Positions 10,988-40,300 are shown, numbered from the stretch's first letter. The stretch: 45,453 nt of DNA from an uncultured Eubacteriales bacterium (GCA_900320505.1 ONSL01000003.1:1-45453); one strand, 5' to 3'. Program-made: numbers and translations. The notes: generated by a model from the sequence alone, not told the origin.

Positions 10988-11152
10988 TTATGCTTTATGT
11001 TTATTTATTCTTTTTAATATTAGTTTCTTATCCATATTATTTTCTACTTAGATAATTTTATTTCCTTATTTGCTATATATGCTGTCTCATTATCAGCACT
11101 AGAGTCTAATTTAAGTATTGATAGGATATAAGTGATTTAAATAAAATATAAA

Positions 11153-11428
11153 TTATTTTTCATAATGTGTCCACATTCTATATATTAATATTTCTTTTTT
11201 TCCTTCATCAACTTTATACACAATACGGTGTTGTCTATTAATTCTTCTTGAATAAAATCCTAATAAATCCCCAGTAAGTTTTTCATAACTAGGTGGGTAA
11301 CAAAAAGGATCATCAATCATACGAGTTAAAATATTAATTGCAATTTTATCAAGCTCAGCATTTTTTAAATTTTTCTTATCCTTTATAGCTTTCTTGGAAA
11401 ACTTTATTTCATAATTACCATTCTTCAT
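11153..11428 (-). CDS. yoeB: Txe/YoeB family toxin
   Basis: EKLTGDLLGFYSRRINRQHRIVY, C-terminal THYE. Confidence 0.92.
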   Translation of the reverse strand: MKNGNYEIKFSKKAIKDKKNLKNAELDKIAINILTRMIDDPFCYPPSYEKLTGDLLGFYSRRINRQHRIVYKVDEGKKEILIYRMWTHYEK

Positions 11429-11672
11429 CAGGATTAAACCTTTCTGACTTACTCCAATCCTCATTCTCATCTATTTTTTTAATTTCATCAACATAACCTG
11501 GAATTGATGATAAGTATAATGTTTCTTCGATTCCTTTCCATTCATCCTCTGAAATTAGTACTGCATTTTTTCCTTTATTATTTACTATTGTTATAGGATT
11601 ATATCCAACATTAACGTCTGATACTAACTGATAAATATTCTTTCTTGCATTTGTTATATTAATAGTATTCAT
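11415..11672 (-). CDS. yefM: Phd/YefM family antitoxin
   Basis: NITNARKN, NAVLISEDEW..IEETLYL; overlaps toxin start. Confidence 0.92.
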   Translation of the reverse strand: MNTINITNARKNIYQLVSDVNVGYNPITIVNNKGKNAVLISEDEWKGIEETLYLSSIPGYVDEIKKIDENEDWSKSERFNPDEEW

Positions 11673-11690
11673 ATTTTTCACCTCACCTAT

Positions 11691-11719
11691 ATTATAACGT
11701 ACTTTAATACGTACGTCAA
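11691..11719 (-). promoter_or_regulatory. TA promoter with palindromic operator in the spacer
   Basis: Minus strand TTGACG (11719-11714), 17 bp, TATAAT (11696-11691); inverted repeat ACGTAC-N8-GTACGT at 11697-11716. Confidence 0.8.
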
Positions 11720-11732
11720 TAGAAATATTAAT

Positions 11733-11764
11733 AAAAAAAGAAATAGTCTTAAAACTACTTCTTT
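11733..11764 (-). terminator. terminator downstream of tRNA-Met
   Basis: Minus-strand AAAGAAGTAGT/ACTATTTCTTT stem plus T-run. Confidence 0.7.
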
Positions 11765-11774
11765 AATTACTAAA

Positions 11775-11851
11775 TGGTAGCGCCGGTGAGATTCGAACTT
11801 ACGACCTATCGGGTATGAACCGATTGCTCTAGCCAACTGAGCTACAGCGCC
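11775..11851 (-). tRNA. tRNA-Met (CAT), elongator type
   Basis: GGCGCTGTAGCTCAGTTGGCTAGAGCAATCGGTTCATACCCGATAGGTCGTAAGTTCGAATCTCACCGGCGCTACCA; cloverleaf with encoded CCA; resembles Bacillus elongator tRNA-Met and lacks the initiator GGG/CCC anticodon stem. Confidence 0.93.
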
Positions 11852-11864
11852 ATCAGACATATAA

Positions 11865-11916
11865 ATTATAACAAATAAAATTATATCTTGCAATAGTTTT
11901 TGATCTTTTCTATAAT
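11865..11916. promoter_or_regulatory. divergent promoters sharing a palindromic -35 (TTGCAA)
   Basis: TTGCAA 11888-11893 with TATAAT 17 bp away on each strand (11911-11916 plus; 11870-11865 minus). Confidence 0.65.
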
Positions 11917-11934
11917 TATATTAGGTGTAAGGTT

Positions 11935-12780
11935 ATGAAAAGATTTATAAATTTTTTGTTTTCTTTAATTATTTTTGTATCTTTATTTCTATTAACTATT
12001 GTTATTAATTTAAATTTTCTTTTTAAAGGTTCTAATCTTAAGAAAATTAACGAAAATATAGATTATACAGAACTTATTAATTTATCTGGTAAAAATATAG
12101 GTATAGAAAATGATTTAAATAATATTTATAATAATTTAATTTTGATTAAGTTAGATAGTAAAAAGATAGATGAAATATATAATAGTAGGTATTTAAAATA
12201 TTCTATTTATAGTATAGAAAATAGTTCTATTAATTATCTTCTTTATAATAAGAAATATGACGCTTTAGATGAAAATGAGCTTAATGAGATTAGCAAAAAA
12301 TATAGTAATGATGATGACTTTAACAAAGCTTTTCCTTTATTTAATAAGGTACTTATTAATTTCAGTATGAAAGCTAAAGAAAGTATTGATAGTATTCCAA
12401 GCAAATATTTGAAAGTTATAAGATTTATGTTTAGCAATAATTTTAAAATTATACTTATTACTATTATTACTATTTCTTGTATAATTCTTATATTTATAGA
12501 TAAAGAAAAGTTTATTCCAAATATTTTTGTTCCTAGTTTAATTCTTGGAATACTTGAGCTTTTGATAGTGTTCTTTGCTCCTAATTTAATATATAAGTAT
12601 TTAGATGAGTTTATATATGTTGTTATAAATCCTTATCTTTCAAGTTTTAATAGAACACTTTTAATTACTAGTTTGATTATTATGATTGTTAGTGTAATAT
12701 ATCTTGCTATATATGATAGAACTGAAAGCAAAAGTAAGATTGTTTTAAAGAAAAAGATAAGAAATAAAAATATTGAATAA
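11935..12780 (+). CDS. hypothetical membrane protein (~4 TM)
   Basis: N-terminal TM, soluble loop, three C-terminal hydrophobic segments. Confidence 0.7.
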   Translation: MKRFINFLFSLIIFVSLFLLTIVINLNFLFKGSNLKKINENIDYTELINLSGKNIGIENDLNNIYNNLILIKLDSKKIDEIYNSRYLKYSIYSIENSSINYLLYNKKYDALDENELNEISKKYSNDDDFNKAFPLFNKVLINFSMKAKESIDSIPSKYLKVIRFMFSNNFKIILITIITISCIILIFIDKEKFIPNIFVPSLILGILELLIVFFAPNLIYKYLDEFIYVVINPYLSSFNRTLLITSLIIMIVSVIYLAIYDRTESKSKIVLKKKIRNKNIE

Positions 12781-27326: not shown

Positions 27327-27367
27327 ATTTTATTTACATTTTGTTTATTAAACTTTACAATATGATA

Positions 27368-27396
27368 TTTACATTCATTTTTTTAAATGATATACT
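27368..27396 (+). promoter_or_regulatory. promoter of the WXG100-like operon
   Basis: TTTACA, 17 bp, TG-A-TATACT. Confidence 0.55.
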
Positions 27397-27452: not shown

Positions 27453-27743
27453 ATGAATGGTACATTTAGTATCGATACATCTGCTGTAAGTCAAAGCGGT
27501 GCAAAATTTCAAGAGTTATCTCGTGAGTATAATAATTATATGACTCAATTAAGATCTACTATTGAAGATTTAGGATCAAATTGGCATAGTGATGTTTACA
27601 ATAAGTTTGTATCAGTATATGAGAAAAATGCTGAAACAATCGATCAAATGAGCAAGGCTTTCGCTTCATTTGGAGATATGCTGACATCTACAAGTAATTC
27701 AGTTAATAGAATAACTCAAGATCTTAGTGATAATATTAATTAA
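27453..27743 (+). CDS. WXG100-like (EsxA-like) protein
   Basis: 96 aa from ATG 27453 (RBS AAGGAGGG); helix-turn-helix with central L...W-H-S turn. Confidence 0.75.
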   Translation: MNGTFSIDTSAVSQSGAKFQELSREYNNYMTQLRSTIEDLGSNWHSDVYNKFVSVYEKNAETIDQMSKAFASFGDMLTSTSNSVNRITQDLSDNIN

Positions 27744-27763
27744 TAATAGGGAGGAATTAAGAT

Positions 27764-28078
27764 ATGAATCAATCATTTAATCAAGCTAAAGCAATTCAAG
27801 ATGCTGAACAAATTTTAAGCATTGCTAATAGAGTTGAAAGCTTATTTACTGAAGCTGAAACTGAAAAGAACAAATTAATGAATTCTTGGCAATCAGAAAA
27901 ATCAGCAGATGCTGCATTTAGAACATTTGATACATATAGAGCTAATTTTGAAGGATTTTTAGGAGAAATTAAAAATCTTGCAAATCAAATTTATATGGCT
28001 AGCGATGCTTATAAAGCTGCTGATAATAGTGCTGCTAAGATTGCTGATGAAACTTTTAAAGTTGAACCAACAGATTAA
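27764..28078 (+). CDS. WXG100-like protein with YxxxD motif
   Basis: 104 aa; central L...W-Q-S; C-terminal YKAAD. Confidence 0.75.
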   Translation: MNQSFNQAKAIQDAEQILSIANRVESLFTEAETEKNKLMNSWQSEKSADAAFRTFDTYRANFEGFLGEIKNLANQIYMASDAYKAADNSAAKIADETFKVEPTD

Positions 28079-28101
28079 TAAGTCAATATATTGCTAATGC
28101 A

Positions 28102-28144
28102 ATATATTGTAAGTGAAAGAGTTTCTCTTTCATTTACAATATAT
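28102..28144 (+). promoter_or_regulatory. long intergenic stem-loop
   Basis: ATATATTGTAAGTGAAAGAG-TTT-CTCTTTCATTTACAATATAT, 20-bp stem with one G-U and no U-tail. Confidence 0.7.
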
Positions 28145-28174
28145 AACATAAGTAGAGGAAAGGTAGGAAAAAAT

Positions 28175-28870
28175 ATGGCATCTAAAAAGAAGACTATTTC
28201 TAGCAGTACAAAAAAAATCTCAAATCCATTTAATGTAGATTATTTACACACTGACGCTCATGGTTTACTTGCTAAAGTAAAAGCAAAGTATGATGAGTGT
28301 TTTGATGCTGCTGATTATATAAAGAAGGATACTGCGATAGAGGATGCAAATGACAAGATTATAAAGCTTAATAATACTATAAGAGAACTTGAAGAGATTG
28401 CATCATCAAAAGATGAAGAAACTTATACACTTAAAGATGTAGAACAAGTACCAATGCAAGCTAAAGCAGTACTTAATGAACTTAACCCAAGTGGAAAAAG
28501 CGGTAAACCTGACGTTATAATGAATCTTCAAAACGGAGTAAAACAGATTGCAGCATCTTATTTTCAAAAGGAACAAGATGATATATCTAAGTTCATTTTA
28601 TATGCAAAGTCTGTATATAATTTATGTGATACAAAGAAGACTAAAAATAATGCAAAGAAAGTTGATGCAATAAAGCTTGAAATAAAAAAGTATTATGCAA
28701 TTAAAGCTAATAAGAAAATGGAAAAGGCAAAGTTTGGGGAAAAGGTTTGCAAAGAGTCTTATGATGTTGTTATGTCAATACATGAAAGTGGCGTTGTGGC
28801 ATCAAGTTATGTATCAATAGGTCCTCTTTCTTCAAAAGATTCTGGATCATCGAAGGGAGGCTCAAAATAA
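28175..28870 (+). CDS. cassette protein X1 (helical, unknown function)
   Basis: ATG 28175 after GGAAAGGTAGG; homologous to the C-terminal part of 30535..31593. Confidence 0.75.
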   Translation: MASKKKTISSSTKKISNPFNVDYLHTDAHGLLAKVKAKYDECFDAADYIKKDTAIEDANDKIIKLNNTIRELEEIASSKDEETYTLKDVEQVPMQAKAVLNELNPSGKSGKPDVIMNLQNGVKQIAASYFQKEQDDISKFILYAKSVYNLCDTKKTKNNAKKVDAIKLEIKKYYAIKANKKMEKAKFGEKVCKESYDVVMSIHESGVVASSYVSIGPLSSKDSGSSKGGSK

Positions 28871-30144
28871 TGAATCAAGATTTAACAGTAAATGAACAAA
28901 AGCTTAGTATGGCTATAGAAGATTTTGAAAATGCAAAAAATACTTTGAATACTACAAAAGATATTGATTCATCAAATTTTAAAAAGCCTACAAGTGAAGG
29001 ATTAAAAGATTCAAGCACAAGTACTTGGAAAGATGTCTTTAATAATGGCAATCAATATTTTGCAAAAGCTAATGAACAAATATCAAATGCTATTGCTAAA
29101 ATAAATGCTGCAACTAATAATTTTAATAGTGCTATTGATAAGAAAAGAGTAGTTGATCAAGAAAAAGAGGATGAGAGTAAAGATCTTCAAACTTTAATTG
29201 ATTCTGGCAGATATAGCATTTCTCTTAAAAATACAAAGACTTTTATAGCAGAAGATGGAGTTACATCTATGCTTACTGGAACTATTGTTGCAACTAGCAA
29301 GAAGACTGGTAAACAAATTGATTTTGATTTTGAAAAGGAAATTGGAAAGAAAGAAACTTCTTCAGATGATAATTCAAATAAACCTGCTGATAATAGTGAA
29401 GAAACTCCTCAGAATGATAATCAAAATACACAACCTGCTTCACAACCAGAACAAAAGCCATTGGAACAACAAAATGTACAACCTGTTCAAAATACAAATA
29501 ATAATGGAGGAGAAAAACCATCTTTAACACCGCAAAGTAGAGGAAGACAAACTGGCACTGTTTCATATAGTCCAAGACAAAATTCTAGTAGTGGAAATAA
29601 TGGAGGTAGCGGTGCAAGTAGTGCTTCAGGACAAACAGCTAATGCAACTCCTGCTGCTAGCACAAATTCTACTGATACTACTACTTCAAATAAACCTATT
29701 ACAAGTGAGGATGCTGCAAATGAAACAACTGATTTGTTTGATGATGGAGCAGAGCTTCTTGATGATACACCAACAAAGAGTACTAGTTCATCTGGTGGAT
29801 CAGTAATTGGTGCAGTTGCTGCTGCAGCTGGTATTGCTGGAGCTGCTGGAATAGGTGTTAAACTTTATAAAGACAGAAGAGAAAATAGTGATTTAGATTT
29901 AGATGAAGATAGACCTACTAATGATAATAAATTCTGGACTGATGAAGATAGCAATGTAATAAATAGTGAAAAAGAATCTTACGGAAATTCTGATACACTT
30001 GATAATGGAGAATTAAAGCCATTAGAAAACCCAAAATATAAAGCATCAGATAATGGATATGAAACACCTAAGGACGAAGACAAAGATTTATCAAATGATA
30101 CATGGGAAATGCCTGATAAGAATGTAAATTTATTTGGAAATTAG
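28870..30144 (+). CDS. cassette protein Y1 (helical N-terminus, low-complexity linker, Gly/Ala-rich hydrophobic segment); putative T7SS substrate
   Basis: TAATG coupling to X1; homologous to 31608..33008; VIGAVAAAAGIAGAAGIGV segment. Confidence 0.7.
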   Translation: MNQDLTVNEQKLSMAIEDFENAKNTLNTTKDIDSSNFKKPTSEGLKDSSTSTWKDVFNNGNQYFAKANEQISNAIAKINAATNNFNSAIDKKRVVDQEKEDESKDLQTLIDSGRYSISLKNTKTFIAEDGVTSMLTGTIVATSKKTGKQIDFDFEKEIGKKETSSDDNSNKPADNSEETPQNDNQNTQPASQPEQKPLEQQNVQPVQNTNNNGGEKPSLTPQSRGRQTGTVSYSPRQNSSSGNNGGSGASSASGQTANATPAASTNSTDTTTSNKPITSEDAANETTDLFDDGAELLDDTPTKSTSSSGGSVIGAVAAAAGIAGAAGIGVKLYKDRRENSDLDLDEDRPTNDNKFWTDEDSNVINSEKESYGNSDTLDNGELKPLENPKYKASDNGYETPKDEDKDLSNDTWEMPDKNVNLFGN

Positions 30145-30160
30145 TTAGGAGCTTGATATT

Positions 30161-30517
30161 ATGAATAATGAATTTTTACCAATAGGATCAATAGTTCTCC
30201 TAAATGGTGGTACAAAGAAATTAATGATTACTGGATTTTGCTCAATACCAAGAAATAATAGACATAAGCTTTATGATTATATTGGTTGCTATTATCCAGA
30301 AGGTGTTATTGATTCTAATGAAGTATGTATGTTTAACAATGATCAAATTGCAAGTATAATATTCAAAGGTTATGAGTCTGACGAAGAAGCTGAACTTCGT
30401 AAAAAAATACATGATAAATTAAGCACAATAACACTTGACAGCGATCATAATATAATAGATAAAGTGATTGATATACAAGAAGAACCAGAGTTTTCAGTAG
30501 ACTCAGGGTTAATATAG
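30161..30517 (+). CDS. DUF4176 family protein
   Basis: LPIGSIVLL, LMITG, YDY.GC.YPEG, FN..QI..I.F.GY...EE. Confidence 0.93.
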   Translation: MNNEFLPIGSIVLLNGGTKKLMITGFCSIPRNNRHKLYDYIGCYYPEGVIDSNEVCMFNNDQIASIIFKGYESDEEAELRKKIHDKLSTITLDSDHNIIDKVIDIQEEPEFSVDSGLI

Positions 30518-30534
30518 AAAGAGGGTAGAAGAGT

Positions 30535-31593
30535 ATGGCAAAGTCAAAAGGTTATACAGGAATAAAATATGAAAATCATGGTGTAGGATTTCAAAATTAT
30601 TATTATAAAAATGGCAAGCTTGTTTCTGAAAACACATATTATGCCACTGGTGATCATAATGTCGCTTCACACGAAAGATTTAAGGGTGAAGAATTAATAA
30701 GGAAACAGATAAAAAATAAGACTTTTACTGGAAACTTTAAAGGTAAGTATTATCATAATGGAAAAAAATATGATAGTTATAATGCATATCTTAAATCTAT
30801 TAAAAAAGTAAAAAGATCTGGCAGTGGTAATGGCTCTGGCTCTGGTGGTGGAAGATCCGGAGGAGGCAGAACTGTTTCTAGTTCTGGATCAAGATCTGGC
30901 TCTGGTAGTAAAGGTGGTGGAAGTTCAAGTACACCTAAGAAGAAAATTTCAAATCCATATCAAATTCCGTATGAAAAAACTAATGCTCATGGAATATTAA
31001 ATTATGTTAAAACGGAATATTATAAGATATTTGATGCTACTGGTCATATAGATAACACTGAAGAATTTGGTAAATTAGATGATGCTATAAATAATTTAAG
31101 AACTAGTATTAAAGATTTAAATAGTCTTGCAGATGAGAATGTTACAGCAATTACATTAGATGCATTAAAGGTTGTTCCAGAATATGTTAAAGATATCTTA
31201 GATAAATTAAGTCCAAGTGGAAGCACTGATGTTTCTGATGTTGAGAAAGATTTGGTAAGTGCTGCTGCTAAGATTACATCATCTTATTATAAAAAGGAAT
31301 GCGAAGATATTGATTATTTTGTTAAAGAAGCTGCATCTGCTAAAGAGCTTTGTGACACTAAGATAACAAGTAATAATAAGGCTAAAGTAAAGGAAATTAA
31401 AGGTGCAATTGATAAAATAATAAGTAAAGCCAATAAAAGAAGAAGTTATGCTAGCAGTCTTTATTCTACTTGTTATTCTGCAACTACATATGATGTCATA
31501 CAAGGTATATATAGTGGCTCTAATGCAACAGCAGCTGATCATGAAAGATATGTAACAACATCTGTTACAGAAGTAAGTAATTTAAGGGTATAA
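30535..31593 (+). CDS. cassette protein X2 (extra basic Tyr-rich N-domain, Gly/Ser linker, X domain)
   Basis: KKISNP, AHG, L.PSG, SY..KE..DI and LCDTK.T.NN shared with X1. Confidence 0.75.
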   Translation: MAKSKGYTGIKYENHGVGFQNYYYKNGKLVSENTYYATGDHNVASHERFKGEELIRKQIKNKTFTGNFKGKYYHNGKKYDSYNAYLKSIKKVKRSGSGNGSGSGGGRSGGGRTVSSSGSRSGSGSKGGGSSSTPKKKISNPYQIPYEKTNAHGILNYVKTEYYKIFDATGHIDNTEEFGKLDDAINNLRTSIKDLNSLADENVTAITLDALKVVPEYVKDILDKLSPSGSTDVSDVEKDLVSAAAKITSSYYKKECEDIDYFVKEAASAKELCDTKITSNNKAKVKEIKGAIDKIISKANKRRSYASSLYSTCYSATTYDVIQGIYSGSNATAADHERYVTTSVTEVSNLRV

Positions 31594-31607
31594 GGAGGTA
31601 ATGAATT

Positions 31608-33008
31608 ATGGATAATGGATATTCAATTAAGTATCAAACAGTTGATCAAGTAGTCGATGAATTAACAAAAATATATAATTCATTAAACTCTCTTAATCTT
31701 TCAAGTTTTTCTAGTTATGGATGCTTTAAATTAGCTACTAATAATGGTAATAATTTCCAGGGAATTAAAGAGTCTGGAAATAAGTATAAATCTGTATTTG
31801 ATTCAAAAGATAAATATTTTAGATCAGCTGATAATAAAATACAGTCCGCATTAACTGAAATAAATAGTAGAAAGAGTAGTCTTACTGGTATATCAACAGA
31901 AACAAATCAAGCTGAAGATGAAAGTGTTGATAACTCGACAGCAGCTGCACAAAAAGGTAATGAGAGTAGTAATCTTTCTAAACCAACAGCTTCATCAGTT
32001 TTATTTGATAGTGATGATTATCAAATTTCACTTTTAACTGGTTCTACGACATCTAGTGCGATTCTTTCAATTCTTGATAAGAAGTCAGGTAAAACATATA
32101 CAGTTGGTGATGGTGATGTAAAAAAAGATGATAGTGATTCGAATGCAGATTCTACTAAACCATCGGATGAAAGCACAACTCCAACAGATACTGAAAAGAC
32201 TTCAGATGATTTAGCAAAAGAAAAAATTGAGGAAATACATAAAGAGGATTCTGATTGGGAGACAACTAAGTCTGAACTTGATAAGAAACTTTCTAATAAC
32301 GAAATAACTCTTGATGATTATAGGAAACAGGAAAGCGAGCATTATACTAGACATAATGCACTTGTTGACGAGCTTCCTACAGATGCTGATGCATCAAAAG
32401 TTGTTACTGTAAATGACAAAATGACTGCTTCAGAAAAACTTCAAGCATATGATGATCAATATAATTTGAAATTAAGTAAATATCATAAAGATTTAAGCAA
32501 GTATAATGAAGAGTGGACTAATGCAACAGATCAGGCAGGAAGAGATGCTGCTATGGCAAAGATTAATGCCGCTTCTAATCAGGCTACTAAGGACGCTCAT
32601 ACTCTTGAAACACAACAGTTTAAAGAACTTCCTAATTTGGCTGCTGAATATGATTCAAAGATTGCTGCAGCAAAAAAGGCTGGTAATACATCTTTAGTTG
32701 ATCAGTTAAAGACTGCTTGGGAACAAAAGAAATATGCTATAGAATATGCATATCACACTGGAACAGGAGATAATACTCCATCTGGAGCTACACTTAAGAA
32801 TGCCGGCATTGGTGCTGCTGCTGCAATACCTCTAGCTGGTATGAGTATTAATTCATTATATAAGAAGAATAAAGAGAAAAAAGAAGAGGCTCAAAGTAAT
32901 AATAGTGTTAATACATCTCATTATGATAGATTTAAGCCTAGTGATATAGAATCATTATATAGTGCTACTTCAAGTAATAAGAATGATGATTACTTTAAAT
33001 TACAATAA
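31608..33008 (+). CDS. cassette protein Y2; putative T7SS substrate
   Basis: K.VF....YF..A...I..A...IN, EDES, DS..Y.ISL, KK.GK and Gly/Ala segment plus LYK shared with Y1. Confidence 0.7.
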   Translation: MDNGYSIKYQTVDQVVDELTKIYNSLNSLNLSSFSSYGCFKLATNNGNNFQGIKESGNKYKSVFDSKDKYFRSADNKIQSALTEINSRKSSLTGISTETNQAEDESVDNSTAAAQKGNESSNLSKPTASSVLFDSDDYQISLLTGSTTSSAILSILDKKSGKTYTVGDGDVKKDDSDSNADSTKPSDESTTPTDTEKTSDDLAKEKIEEIHKEDSDWETTKSELDKKLSNNEITLDDYRKQESEHYTRHNALVDELPTDADASKVVTVNDKMTASEKLQAYDDQYNLKLSKYHKDLSKYNEEWTNATDQAGRDAAMAKINAASNQATKDAHTLETQQFKELPNLAAEYDSKIAAAKKAGNTSLVDQLKTAWEQKKYAIEYAYHTGTGDNTPSGATLKNAGIGAAAAIPLAGMSINSLYKKNKEKKEEAQSNNSVNTSHYDRFKPSDIESLYSATSSNKNDDYFKLQ

Positions 33009-33019
33009 GGAGGGGTAAA

Positions 33020-33367
33020 ATGGGAGATAGACTATTCTTACCAATAGGATCCATAGTGCTTCTAAAGGGTGGTACTAAGAAGGTAATGATTACAGGATTT
33101 TGTTCTATTCCTAATAATAATAAAAATAAGCTCTATGACTATTCTGGATGTATGTATCCAGAAGGATTTATAAATACAAATGAAGTATGTTTGTTTAATA
33201 ATAGTCAGATTGATAAAGTATATTTTATTGGATATACAGATAAAGAAGAAAAAGAGTTTCAGGTAAAATTAAAAGATTTAGTTCAAAGTCTTCATTTAAA
33301 GGCAACTCAGGATTCTGGACCTAATACAGGAGATTCACAGTATTCAGTTGATAGAGGAGCTTTTTAG
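33020..33367 (+). CDS. DUF4176 family protein
   Basis: LPIGSIVLLKGG, MITG, YDYSGCMYPEG; close paralog of 30161..30517. Confidence 0.93.
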   Translation: MGDRLFLPIGSIVLLKGGTKKVMITGFCSIPNNNKNKLYDYSGCMYPEGFINTNEVCLFNNSQIDKVYFIGYTDKEEKEFQVKLKDLVQSLHLKATQDSGPNTGDSQYSVDRGAF

Positions 33368-33368
33368 A

Positions 33369-33398
33369 GAGTGTCATTTAAAGTGGTACTCTTTTTTT
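33369..33398 (+). terminator. terminator closing the WXG100-like operon
   Basis: GAGTGTCAT/GTGGTACTC stem (with G-U pairs) plus T7. Confidence 0.7.
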
Positions 33399-39000: not shown

Positions 39001-39719
39001 CATTCAATTATTTTATTAACATTATAAAAGTATTCAAGATATGTAAAATGTGATCCATCTTTGAAACTTATTAGGCTACTATTTTTTATAAGTTTATTTA
39101 ACTTCTTTCCGTCTTTAATTGGAGTAATACTATCTTTTTCTCCCCATATAATTAAGGTATCAACCTTAATTTTTTTATAGTATTTTTTTAAGTTTTCTTT
39201 AACAATATTTTTAAATGTATTTTTCATATTTTCATTTAATGCTTTATAGTCAGGTGATGCGTATTTTAAAAATATTTCTTTTCTTTTTCTTTTAAATAGT
39301 TTTATTTTTACTTTATATATTATTTCTTTTACTTTTGTTTTTATACTTTTTCCTTTAAAACCTGCAACATCCATTAAGACAAGTCTTTTAACTTTTATAT
39401 TATATTTACCTATTAAAATACTTGCAATTCTTCCACCAAATGAATGAGCGATTACGTATAAATTATTTATATTATTATGTTTTATAAATTCTTTTACTAC
39501 ATAGGCATAATTATATATAGTTAGATCTCTATTTGGAAATTTAGAGTTTCCAAAGCCTATATTATGTACTATGTAAATATTATAGTTTTTAAAGTAACTA
39601 GATATATTATAAAATGTATTAAATGTTTCTCCCCAACCAGGAAGTATTAAAATATTTTTATTTTTATTTCTATTAATAAATTCAACATAAAGGTTTATAT
39701 CATTATATCTGTAATACAT
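38985..39719 (-). CDS. alpha/beta hydrolase
   Basis: LPGWG, GFG.S, AHSFGG, WGEKD..TP and SHF motifs. Confidence 0.9.
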   Translation of the reverse strand: MYYRYNDINLYVEFINRNKNKNILILPGWGETFNTFYNISSYFKNYNIYIVHNIGFGNSKFPNRDLTIYNYAYVVKEFIKHNNINNLYVIAHSFGGRIASILIGKYNIKVKRLVLMDVAGFKGKSIKTKVKEIIYKVKIKLFKRKRKEIFLKYASPDYKALNENMKNTFKNIVKENLKKYYKKIKVDTLIIWGEKDSITPIKDGKKLNKLIKNSSLISFKDGSHFTYLEYFYNVNKIIECYFKD

Positions 39720-39742
39720 AAAATCACCTATAGTAATTTATG

Positions 39743-40300
39743 CTATAGGTTTTTAAATGTTATATTATTTTTTATAAGTTTTTCTTTATCTTTTTTTGTT
39801 ATACTCACTGTTAGAACTATATTTTCATCAAATTTTTTATCTATAATATTATCTTTATTTATAAGTGATAAAATTCTGTCAAGTTCTTTATAATTTGTTT
39901 TAATCTCTATTTTTTCTTTTTTCTCAATCTTTCTTAAATTTTCACTATTTATTACATTTTTTGCTGCAAGAGAATATGCTCTTATTAGACCACCAGCTCC
40001 TAATTTTATACCACCAAAATATCTTATTACGACTATTAAAACATTATCAAGATTATTTTTTTCTATAATATTTAGTATTGGACTTCCTGCTGTGCCAGAT
40101 GGCTCATTATCATCATCTTTTTTTATAATATTATCTATTTTATATGCATATGTATAATGAGTTGCTTTTTTATATTTTTCTTTTAGATCATTTAATATAT
40201 TATTTACATCATCAACACTTTTAACATTATAGATAAAACTATAAAACTTTGAGTTTTTAATTTCATAATAGTATGATGCTTTCTCAATAATTTCGTACAT
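39743..40300 (-). CDS. yigZ: YigZ/IMPACT family protein
   Basis: IK.SKF, ATH..YAY, DD.EPSGTAG and RYFGGIKLGAGGLIRAY motifs. Confidence 0.93.
   Translation of the reverse strand: MYEIIEKASYYYEIKNSKFYSFIYNVKSVDDVNNILNDLKEKYKKATHYTYAYKIDNIIKKDDDNEPSGTAGSPILNIIEKNNLDNVLIVVIRYFGGIKLGAGGLIRAYSLAAKNVINSENLRKIEKKEKIEIKTNYKELDRILSLINKDNIIDKKFDENIVLTVSITKKDKEKLIKNNITFKNL

Follow-up and report, generated by a model that had tools for sequence, protein, structure and literature searches.

Well-studied cargo of the type VII secretion system b (T7SSb) is either a soluble WXG100 protein or an LXG-type toxin encoded with its immunity protein. In LXG modules such as those of TelA and TelB of Streptococcus intermedius, the genes run in the order lap1, lap2, a DUF4176 gene (ltc or lcp), the LXG cargo gene and an immunity gene. 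TelE of S. gallolyticus and EsxX and TspA of S. aureus have LXG domains and dedicated immunity (DUF5085 pairs, or polytopic ExiCD, TsaI or DUF443 proteins), and each carries a single Gly/Ala-rich hydrophobic helix near its C-terminus. In TelE (514 residues) this glycine zipper spans residues 458-480, and a DUF4176 protein is needed to stabilise the middle and C-terminal regions (10.64898/2026.03.12.711312); in EsxX, a cytoplasmic protein covers the zipper ahead of export (PMC12744356). DUF4176 proteins are described as toxin-specific cytoplasmic chaperones, the small ones being proposed binders of membrane-inserting helices (PMC12478183), and small DUF4176 genes mostly adjoin DUF443 immunity genes and rarely toxins (Gkragkopoulou et al. 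2025; PDB 9dcs). Here we describe an eight-gene island at 27453..33398 on the + strand of a 45,453-nucleotide contig from an uncultured Eubacteriales bacterium (GCA_900320505.1 ONSL01000003.1:1-45453; this whole stretch is the window), in which a WXG100 gene and a WXG100-like gene precede two copies of a cassette composed of two orphan genes, X and Y, and a small DUF4176 gene. We consider it very probable that this is an island of type VII secretion system (T7SS) substrates and likely that X, Y and DUF4176 act as a functional trio. Tentatively, and with somewhat less than even confidence, we read Y as a T7SS-exported surface protein, anchored with its N-terminus outside and its C-terminus inside, with X as its helical partner and DUF4176 as its chaperone.

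This window corresponds to contig C86 of an 81.6% complete metagenome-assembled genome (MAG; G000) of 1.2 Mb and 88 contigs; the stretch has a GC content of ~27% and is chromosomal. The island's eight tightly packed open reading frames (ORFs), all on the + strand between murE and lepA, and their signals are as follows.

27333..27396, + strand: pair of overlapping sigma-70-like promoter-like sites, 10/12 hexamer matches each (consensus scan)
27453..27743, + strand: WXG-a, 96 residues, WXG100 (Pfam)
27764..28078, + strand: WXG-b, 104 residues, WXG100-like, below the cut-off (Pfam)
28084..28109, + strand: RNA hairpin, perfect 11-bp inverted repeat, between WXG-b and X1
28175..28870, + strand: X1, 231 residues, all-alpha orphan; its stop overlaps the Y1 start
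28870..30144, + strand: Y1, 424 residues; N-terminal domain, linker, transmembrane (TM) helix, tail
30161..30517, + strand: DUF4176-1, 118 residues, small class (Pfam)
30535..31593, + strand: X2, 352 residues, with the X core at ~133-330
31608..33008, + strand: Y2, 466 residues, with an N-terminal domain paralogous to that of Y1
33020..33367, + strand: DUF4176-2, 115 residues (Pfam)
33366..33394, + strand: terminator-like 13-bp hairpin and T-run, closing the unit before lepA

A preliminary description of the locus had read it as a single promoter-to-terminator unit between murE and lepA, and the eight + strand ORFs, the promoter-like sites and the terminator-like hairpin confirm that observation; the consensus scan of the window returned 49 promoter-like sites (34.9 expected) and 2 terminator-like ones (1.7 expected). 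A ribosome-binding site (GGAGGG) precedes the ATG at 27453, and for X1 the ATG at 28175 behind GAGGAAAGG, which is backed by a ribosome-binding site, was preferred over a longer TTG-initiated ORF from 28091. The hairpin at 28084-28109 sits in a 96-nucleotide gap and is unusually stable (-12.5 kcal/mol, z -3.85, 0/200 shuffles as stable), and no + strand T-run comes after it. One possibility is that processing or attenuation here separates WXG expression from that of the cassettes.

The link to a T7SS begins with the two leading genes. WXG-a matches WXG100 (PF06013) at 32.0 bits (cut-off 27.3), and its orthologue in a genome of the same genus (G200) does so at 37.1 bits; WXG-b reaches only 23.3 bits, so that of the WXG100 pair proposed earlier one member stands and the other is WXG100-like only. 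The W-x-G turn motif is altered to W-H-S in WXG-a and W-Q-S in WXG-b, the Trp being invariant across 13 aligned relatives and the Gly replaced. No sequence likeness between WXG-a and WXG-b was detectable, and WXG-a scored 14.7 bits on DUF3130, below the Pfam cut-off of 25. The two genes are the only WXG100 matches in the G000 genome; therefore they may be a core EsxA-type pair, and are probably the organism's EsxA/EsxB-type core substrate pair. The genome was searched for a T7 ATPase, and matches to the EssC model TIGR03928 were found only on contigs C68 and C38, none of them in the window, as the preliminary description had it. The C68 protein (locus L001; 1531 residues) scores 1038 bits against a cut-off of 778, with an FHA domain (43.7 bits) and FtsK_SpoIIIE (154 bits); downstream of its gene lie an 83-residue ORF, a 73-residue ORF and an Abi_2 gene. 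Neither small ORF matches Pfam; the 83-residue one is a possible YukD. Profile searches of G000 found no YukC/EssB and no EsaA N-terminal domain; the genome has four sortase genes.

DUF4176-1 and DUF4176-2 match PF13780 at 90.8 and 100.1 bits (cut-off 25), and their lengths (118 and 115 residues) place them inside the small class of 70-130 residues. A profile of 24 family members matches PDB 9dcs at E 6.7e-18. We sampled 201 genomes from 200 genera of the one family to which the host belongs, mostly incomplete MAGs; kin are not independent, so that the counts are descriptive. DUF4176 was present in 54/201, and EssC accompanied it in 49 of these 54 genomes vs 31 of the 147 without DUF4176. This co-occurrence, together with the EssC elsewhere in the genome, upholds the earlier view of a T7SS-linked substrate unit. 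EssC exceeded its cut-off in 77/201 genomes (80/201 at E ≤ 1e-50), several of which have two or three essC copies (G200 has three), and YukC/EssB exceeded its cut-off in 0/201. The family's T7SS looks reduced and comparable to the EssB-less subtypes c-j, which combine an ATPase, WXG100 proteins and a ubiquitin-like protein and lack EssB and EsaA (Garrett et al. 2024, PMC11217815). Those subtypes resemble the island's genome in the absence of EssB and EsaA and the island in having WXG100-like genes beside candidate cargo; what sets the C68 EssC apart is its FHA domain and its score above the cut-off of the T7SSb-type NCBIfam model.

The two cassettes are diverged copies of one another, as had been proposed: X1 and X2 share 37% identity over 193 residues (E 4e-31), Y1 and Y2 27% over the N-terminal 145 residues (E 2e-5), and the two DUF4176 proteins 55% (E 2e-43), and on these alignments the duplication is real. 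Compared with LXG modules, the island likewise has small helical WXG100-like genes before a large cargo gene, a DUF4176 gene in the module, a cargo (Y) with a disordered middle and an EssC-type ATPase elsewhere. It differs in having no LXG domain in Pfam, no toxin domain and no immunity gene; in a DUF4176 gene that is of the small class and follows the cargo gene rather than preceding it; in an orphan partner, X, of 231-352 residues; and in a Y C-terminus that is conserved where the N-terminus varies. Its small DUF4176 genes also depart from the usual surroundings of their class in lying directly after a cargo gene that encodes a TM helix.

Neither Pfam nor NCBIfam has a family for X1, X2, Y1 or Y2 at E ≤ 0.01, and a word index, a HMMER pass and PDB sequences likewise place X and Y outside described families, in line with the earlier account. 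X1 matched only itself in a word index of 5.8 billion proteins, and among the 200 other genomes of the family nothing credible was found (three matches at E 0.006-0.01, all short and to unrelated long ORFs). A HMMER search with a profile of the X1/X2 core retrieved 8 proteins at E ≤ 0.001 from 1.84 billion representatives, X1 and X2 included; the claim of lineage specificity thus holds for X. None of the six other members has a Pfam family, the X profile reached at best E 0.051 against PDB sequences, X1 and X2 match none of the Lap profiles (DUF3130, DUF3958 and others), and in the ESM Atlas the best score for X1 was an uninformative 0.83. Among 11 X-position proteins from different genera, phmmer linked only within-genome pairs and one further pair: each genome's two X genes are alike, but unlike the X genes of other genera.

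Four positions (Y129, K132, E133 and D136 in X1 numbering) are invariant in 8/8 X proteins, forming Y-x-x-K-E-x-x-D, which contains YxxxE. T7SS substrates and Lap1 carry export motifs of the form YxxxD/E and FxxxD (PMC13492133), and the invariant YxxxE of X is reminiscent of these; we take it as a lead only, as the motif falls inside a long helix of the X1 model. That AlphaFold2 model (2 sequences; mean predicted local distance difference test score (pLDDT) 59.5, predicted TM-score 0.47) shows an all-alpha protein whose long hairpin (111-204) reaches pLDDT 80-88. X2 and four relatives have a Tyr-rich N-terminal extension and low-complexity linkers; in 4/8 family members (X2 30535-30930; P0006, P0008, P0009) extensions with motifs such as YYYKNGK and GKYYHNGKKY lead through Gly/Ser/Thr/Lys linkers into the X core, which in X2 sits behind the extension and a Gly/Ser linker. 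Pfam scans matched no repeat family to the extensions.

Each Y protein has a Gly/Ala-rich TM helix near its C-terminus, a feature that, with the downgrading of WXG-b, adds to the preliminary description. In Y1 this helix spans ~310-330 (nucleotides 29797-29859) and is followed by KLYKDRRE and a 94-residue acidic tail; in Y2 it spans ~399-418 (nucleotides 32802-32861), followed by KKNKEKK and a 48-residue tail. No N-terminal hydrophobic signal was found in any Y. Across an alignment of 11 Y C-termini from seven genomes, the helix has a Gly+Ala content of 40-63% (11/11) and 4-13 small-xxx-small pairs (11/11), although strict GxxxG occurs only 0-2 times; at least 4 Lys/Arg lie within 8 residues past the helix in 10/11. 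The tails measure 47-123 residues, in 9/11 their net charge lies between -13 and -27, and an aromatic motif (ND[TS]W, DKYQAG, DDYF) recurs near their end. Ahead of the helix, the AlphaFold2 model of Y1 (3 sequences, mean pLDDT 48) places helices at 9-30 and, after a loop, 50-111, and three strands within 115-153, at pLDDT 50-79; beyond residue 155 pLDDT falls below 50, and the middle of Y1 is a low-complexity linker rich in Ser, Thr, Asn, Gln and Pro.

Y1 and both G200 Y proteins can be aligned only in the TM-plus-tail module (38-40% identity, E 1e-20 and 2e-16), and their N-termini are unrelated. The word index returned Y1 itself and P0003 for whole Y1, and Y1 itself, P0003 and P0011 for the tail; residues 1-165 of Y1 had an uninformative best score of 0.82 in the ESM Atlas. 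It is the C-terminal module, not the N-terminus, that is kept across genera, the reverse of LXG and polymorphic toxins. The most amphipathic 18-mer of Y1 past residue 150, DAANETTDLFDDGAELLD, starts at residue 281 and is conserved in the orthologue of contig L061 (below) and in G200; this conserved stretch, DLFDDGAELLDD (residues 281-298), is, along with the TM helix, a candidate chaperone-client site.

Orthologous islands show the same gene order and an uneven pace of change. Metagenome contig L061 carries, in identical order, WXG-a, WXG-b, X1', Y1', DUF4176, X2', Y2', DUF4176 and lepA. The G200 locus (L044, the same as L060) reads WXG, WXG, a 178-residue ORF, a 529-residue TM ORF, DUF4176, a 181-residue ORF, a 390-residue TM ORF and lepA. 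In 3/3 relatives the island lies directly upstream of lepA, and the upstream neighbour differs each time. Amino acid identity between the window and L061 and Nei-Gojobori dN/dS (the ratio of nonsynonymous to synonymous substitution rates, rough here with dS near saturation) were as follows.

lepA: identity 84.6%, dN/dS 0.12
WXG-a: identity 87.5%, dN/dS 0.09
WXG-b: identity 71.2%
DUF4176-1: identity 72.9%
DUF4176-2: identity 64.3%
X1: identity 48.2%, dN/dS 0.34
Y1: identity 48.0%, dN/dS 0.62 (whole)
X2: identity 33.4%, dN/dS 0.62
Y2: identity 32.5%, dN/dS 0.66
Y1 segments: dN/dS 0.57 (N-terminus), 1.15 (middle), 0.35 (C-terminus)

Y1 dN alone was 0.57 in the N-terminal part, 0.88 in the middle and 0.23 in the C-terminal part. 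X and Y of each cassette diverge in step and far faster than the rest, a pattern that fits exposed, mutually fitting proteins.

Pairing of Y with DUF4176 extends beyond the genus. A profile built from nine Y C-termini matched 32 places in 25/201 family genomes at E ≤ 0.001. Seventeen places reach E ≤ 1e-8, and 12 of them end ≤180 nucleotides upstream of a same-strand DUF4176 gene, in 10 genomes from 10 genera: G000 (two), G200 (one of two), G093 (two), G171, G156, G096, G025, G053, G021 and G113. Five strong places are unpaired. One is the second G200 cassette, with lepA next in line; two sit on short contigs of G188, whose genome yielded no DUF4176 match; G020 and G185 have one each. The G185 place is 1.8 kb from a DUF4176 gene, and a weaker place in the same genome (7e-7) adjoins one.

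DUF4176 genes of the family also occur in a second context, in which a helical protein of 145-190 residues, a small DUF4176 and a protein of 470-730+ residues follow one another in an order that recalls lap-ltc-LXG (loci L010, L022, L024, L030, L031, L035, L038, L048 and L052). The large proteins of this context have no Pfam LXG match, and the helical protein of L052 (2349-2921, - strand) bears a LysM domain (57.4 bits).

Searches for toxin and immunity functions were negative throughout. Y was said to have no recognisable toxin domain, and we found neither a toxin family in X or Y (Pfam, NCBIfam) nor an LXG match (PF04740) for Y1, Y2, X1 or X2 at E ≤ 1; LXG was also absent from the G000 genome at E ≤ 0.01 and from 26 DUF4176 neighbours of relatives. 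Y1 may still resemble LXG in structure, its low-confidence model having two long helices and a beta-hairpin. The gaps between Y and DUF4176 (16 nucleotides in cassette 1, 11 in cassette 2) leave no room for an ORF, as noted earlier for immunity-like genes, and the island has no polytopic ORF. In the 81.6% complete G000, DUF443 matched below its cut-off only; DUF5085 had no match there, a weak negative given that the control profile matched no control genome. No candidate for immunity turned up in the island, in L044 or L061, or among type-A loci from four other genera. Conserved polytopic ORFs behind the cassettes of L041-L043 were considered as immunity genes and dropped because they resemble the beginning of a sensor kinase gene, one of them bearing a putative HisKA-like motif. 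In three genera a conserved ORF of ~104 residues, with a TM helix at its N-terminus, comes straight after the last DUF4176 gene and precedes a sensor-kinase-like gene (L041 14028-14342, L043 14239-14556, L042 13307-13615).

Positive charges flank the cytoplasmic side of a TM helix (the positive-inside rule), and because this rule applies to the Lys/Arg cluster after the helix, Y is predicted to have its N-terminus outside and its tail inside. A tail-anchored Y with its N-terminus inside was rejected on the post-helix Lys/Arg cluster and the 47-123-residue tails. With no N-terminal signal and 300 to ~1350 residues ahead of the helix, a dedicated exporter would therefore be needed. In the mechanism that we propose, EssC rather than Sec would carry out the N-terminal part of Y (300 residues, up to ~1350 in relatives), and Y would stay in the producer's own membrane as a fibrillar surface protein with its tail inside. 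X, translationally coupled to Y (the X1 stop overlaps the Y1 start) and diverging at an equal rate, would pack on the N-terminal helix-loop-helix of Y, as Lap proteins do on LXG domains. Through its invariant YxxxE, X may also supply the export motif. DUF4176, cytoplasmic and not exported in studied systems, would maintain the solubility of a hydrophobic or amphipathic stretch of Y ahead of export. Gene content, paralogy, the conservation pattern, the EssC/DUF4176 linkage and the lack of known toxin or immunity families were observed directly; the binding steps, the export route and the topology are all inferred. The surface display or membrane targeting suggested earlier stands in that sense only, as an inference that fits the TM helix, the Lys/Arg cluster and the absence of a signal peptide.

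Such a protein would have a familiar outline. The layout of Y matches that of sortase-anchored fibrillar proteins of the M-protein type in Gram-positive bacteria: first a variable N-terminal head, next a stalk that is helical or of low complexity, then a Ser/Thr-rich segment, and lastly a hydrophobic helix with a positively charged stop; unlike them, Y has no signal peptide or LPXTG, has a long tail past the helix and is encoded among T7SS-linked genes. A search of part of the literature found no paper on T7SS cargo bearing a conserved membrane anchor at the C-terminus, and none on the X family. On a more guarded footing, and possible rather than probable, is a Sec- and sortase-independent display route in which a reduced T7SS (EssC and a ubiquitin-like protein, but neither EssB nor EsaA) would push the large N-terminal part of the signal-less Y to the outside and leave Y anchored N-out/C-in by its Gly/Ala helix and Lys/Arg stop, with DUF4176 as pre-insertion chaperone and X as export adaptor.

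Several observations weigh against reading Y as an exported, anchored protein. We know of no case in which a T7SS channel releases a TM helix laterally. The AlphaFold2 models are weak (mean pLDDT 48 for Y1 and 59.5 for X1), and the TM stretch of Y1 received no helix call. Alignment of the Y N-terminus with WXG100 gave an hhalign probability of 0.6%. Fold searches of the X1 and Y1 models brought up generic helical matches alone, all under the noise bar: Foldseek found nothing in the PDB at E ≤ 0.001 for either, and a wide fold search, with a bar of ~13 for helical folds, reached Z 10.4 (CorA) for X1 and Z 9.0 for Y1 (HP0062 Z 8.8; EsxA:EsxB 4lws Z 7.7, rank 50). In the second G200 cassette (L044 4433-5605), lepA follows X and Y with no DUF4176 gene in between; either one chaperone serves both alike-tailed Y proteins or a DUF4176 gene was lost. 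Among the 25 Y-tail genomes, 9, mostly with weak matches, have no DUF4176 found and 5 no EssC found; G025 (L019; ~95% complete) has a strong Y and an adjacent DUF4176 but no EssC at E ≤ 1e-50. Identities of Y tails and of DUF4176 proteins are not significantly correlated (Mantel r = 0.12, 10 pairs; 1046/5000 permutations reach r), and the G093 tails are 66% identical where their DUF4176 genes are only 39% identical. Since Y tails and DUF4176 do not co-vary, chaperone specificity may lie outside the TM/tail module, upstream of the helix. Finally, a Gly/Ala-rich C-terminal helix combined with DUF4176 dependence is also the signature of the TelE toxin (10.64898/2026.03.12.711312).

That signature leads to the main competing explanation, which we take seriously but hold somewhat less probable than the anchor: Y1 and Y2 would be secreted glycine-zipper, membrane-depolarising toxins of the TelE, EsxX and TspA kind with a non-canonical targeting domain, X a Lap-like targeting factor and DUF4176 both chaperone and cytoplasmic antidote, shielding the zipper inside the producer; once exported, the helix would insert into a competitor's membrane. 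The Gly/Ala-rich helix, with 4-13 small-xxx-small pairs in 11/11 proteins, the DUF4176-dependent C-terminal zipper of TelE (10.64898/2026.03.12.711312), the masking of the EsxX zipper in the cytoplasm before export (PMC12744356), the mostly antibacterial nature of known T7SSb cargo (PMC13492133), and fast X/Y evolution in a duplicated cassette, as in polymorphic toxins, all speak for it. We nevertheless favour an anchor because of the stop-transfer-like Lys/Arg cluster and long conserved tail; because a variable head and a low-complexity stalk precede a conserved C-terminus, the reverse of polymorphic toxins; and because no immunity candidate was found here, in L044 or L061, at the type-A loci of the four other genera or in the genome (the DUF5085 negative being weak). 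Nor was an LXG domain, such as TelE, EsxX and TspA have, found in Y; its strict GxxxG pairs are few (0-2 per helix), and the Lys/Arg cluster with a 47-123-residue, mostly acidic tail, a difference from those toxins, is awkward for insertion from outside.

Two further explanations take Y out of the cargo altogether. Given that YukC/EssB exceeded its cut-off in 0/201 genomes vs 77/201 for EssC, that G000 shows no EsaA N-terminal domain, and that other T7SS subtypes have single-pass and large C-terminal-TM proteins proposed as components (PMC11217815), Y, with or without X, might be an accessory membrane part of a reduced T7SS, a wall-spanning conduit or stator like EsaA or TsdI. We think this very unlikely because of the patchy distribution of Y (tail matches in 25/201 genomes vs 80 with EssC at E ≤ 1e-50), its duplication in the island and its fast divergence (32-48% identity between close relatives vs 87.5% for WXG-a); moreover, Y genes lie apart from essC, and TsdI has a Sec signal peptide whereas Y has none. 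Highly improbable, too, is that Y is an ordinary bitopic protein inserted via YidC/Sec, X its cytoplasmic partner, and WXG100 and DUF4176 chance or regulatory neighbours. Export of Y is itself a prediction, the five Y-tail genomes in which EssC was not found would suit this arrangement, and X and Y match no T7SS family profile; yet the cassettes share an operon with the genome's only WXG100 genes, the Y-DUF4176 pair is kept across genera, the charges predict a large N-terminal part outside without a signal peptide, and DUF4176 is known only from T7SS contexts (PMC12478183).

The genes around the island share its + strand. Those on its 5' side encode MreC, what is probably MreD, and MurE (463 bits vs an NCBIfam cut-off of 373); those on its 3' side encode LepA (942 bits vs 534) and then HemW. 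Elsewhere in the window, GC skew is uniformly positive except in the 1-kb bins 11001-12000 and 39001-40000, where it is negative, probably reflecting minus-strand genes.

For the small DUF4176 chaperones, the 2025 study only speculates on membrane-inserting helices as clients; here, in many genera, a small DUF4176 gene comes straight after a cargo gene that encodes just such a helix, which offers a concrete pair for testing. An anchored, variable-headed cargo without an immunity gene would widen the role of T7SSb to include either surface display or a toxin of new layout. The host family, small-genome gut Bacilli with EssC in ~40% of the sampled genomes and no recognisable EssB, may run a reduced machine. 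If the display route holds true, the fast-evolving heads of Y would be adhesins or antigenically variable fibres of these uncultured gut Bacilli.

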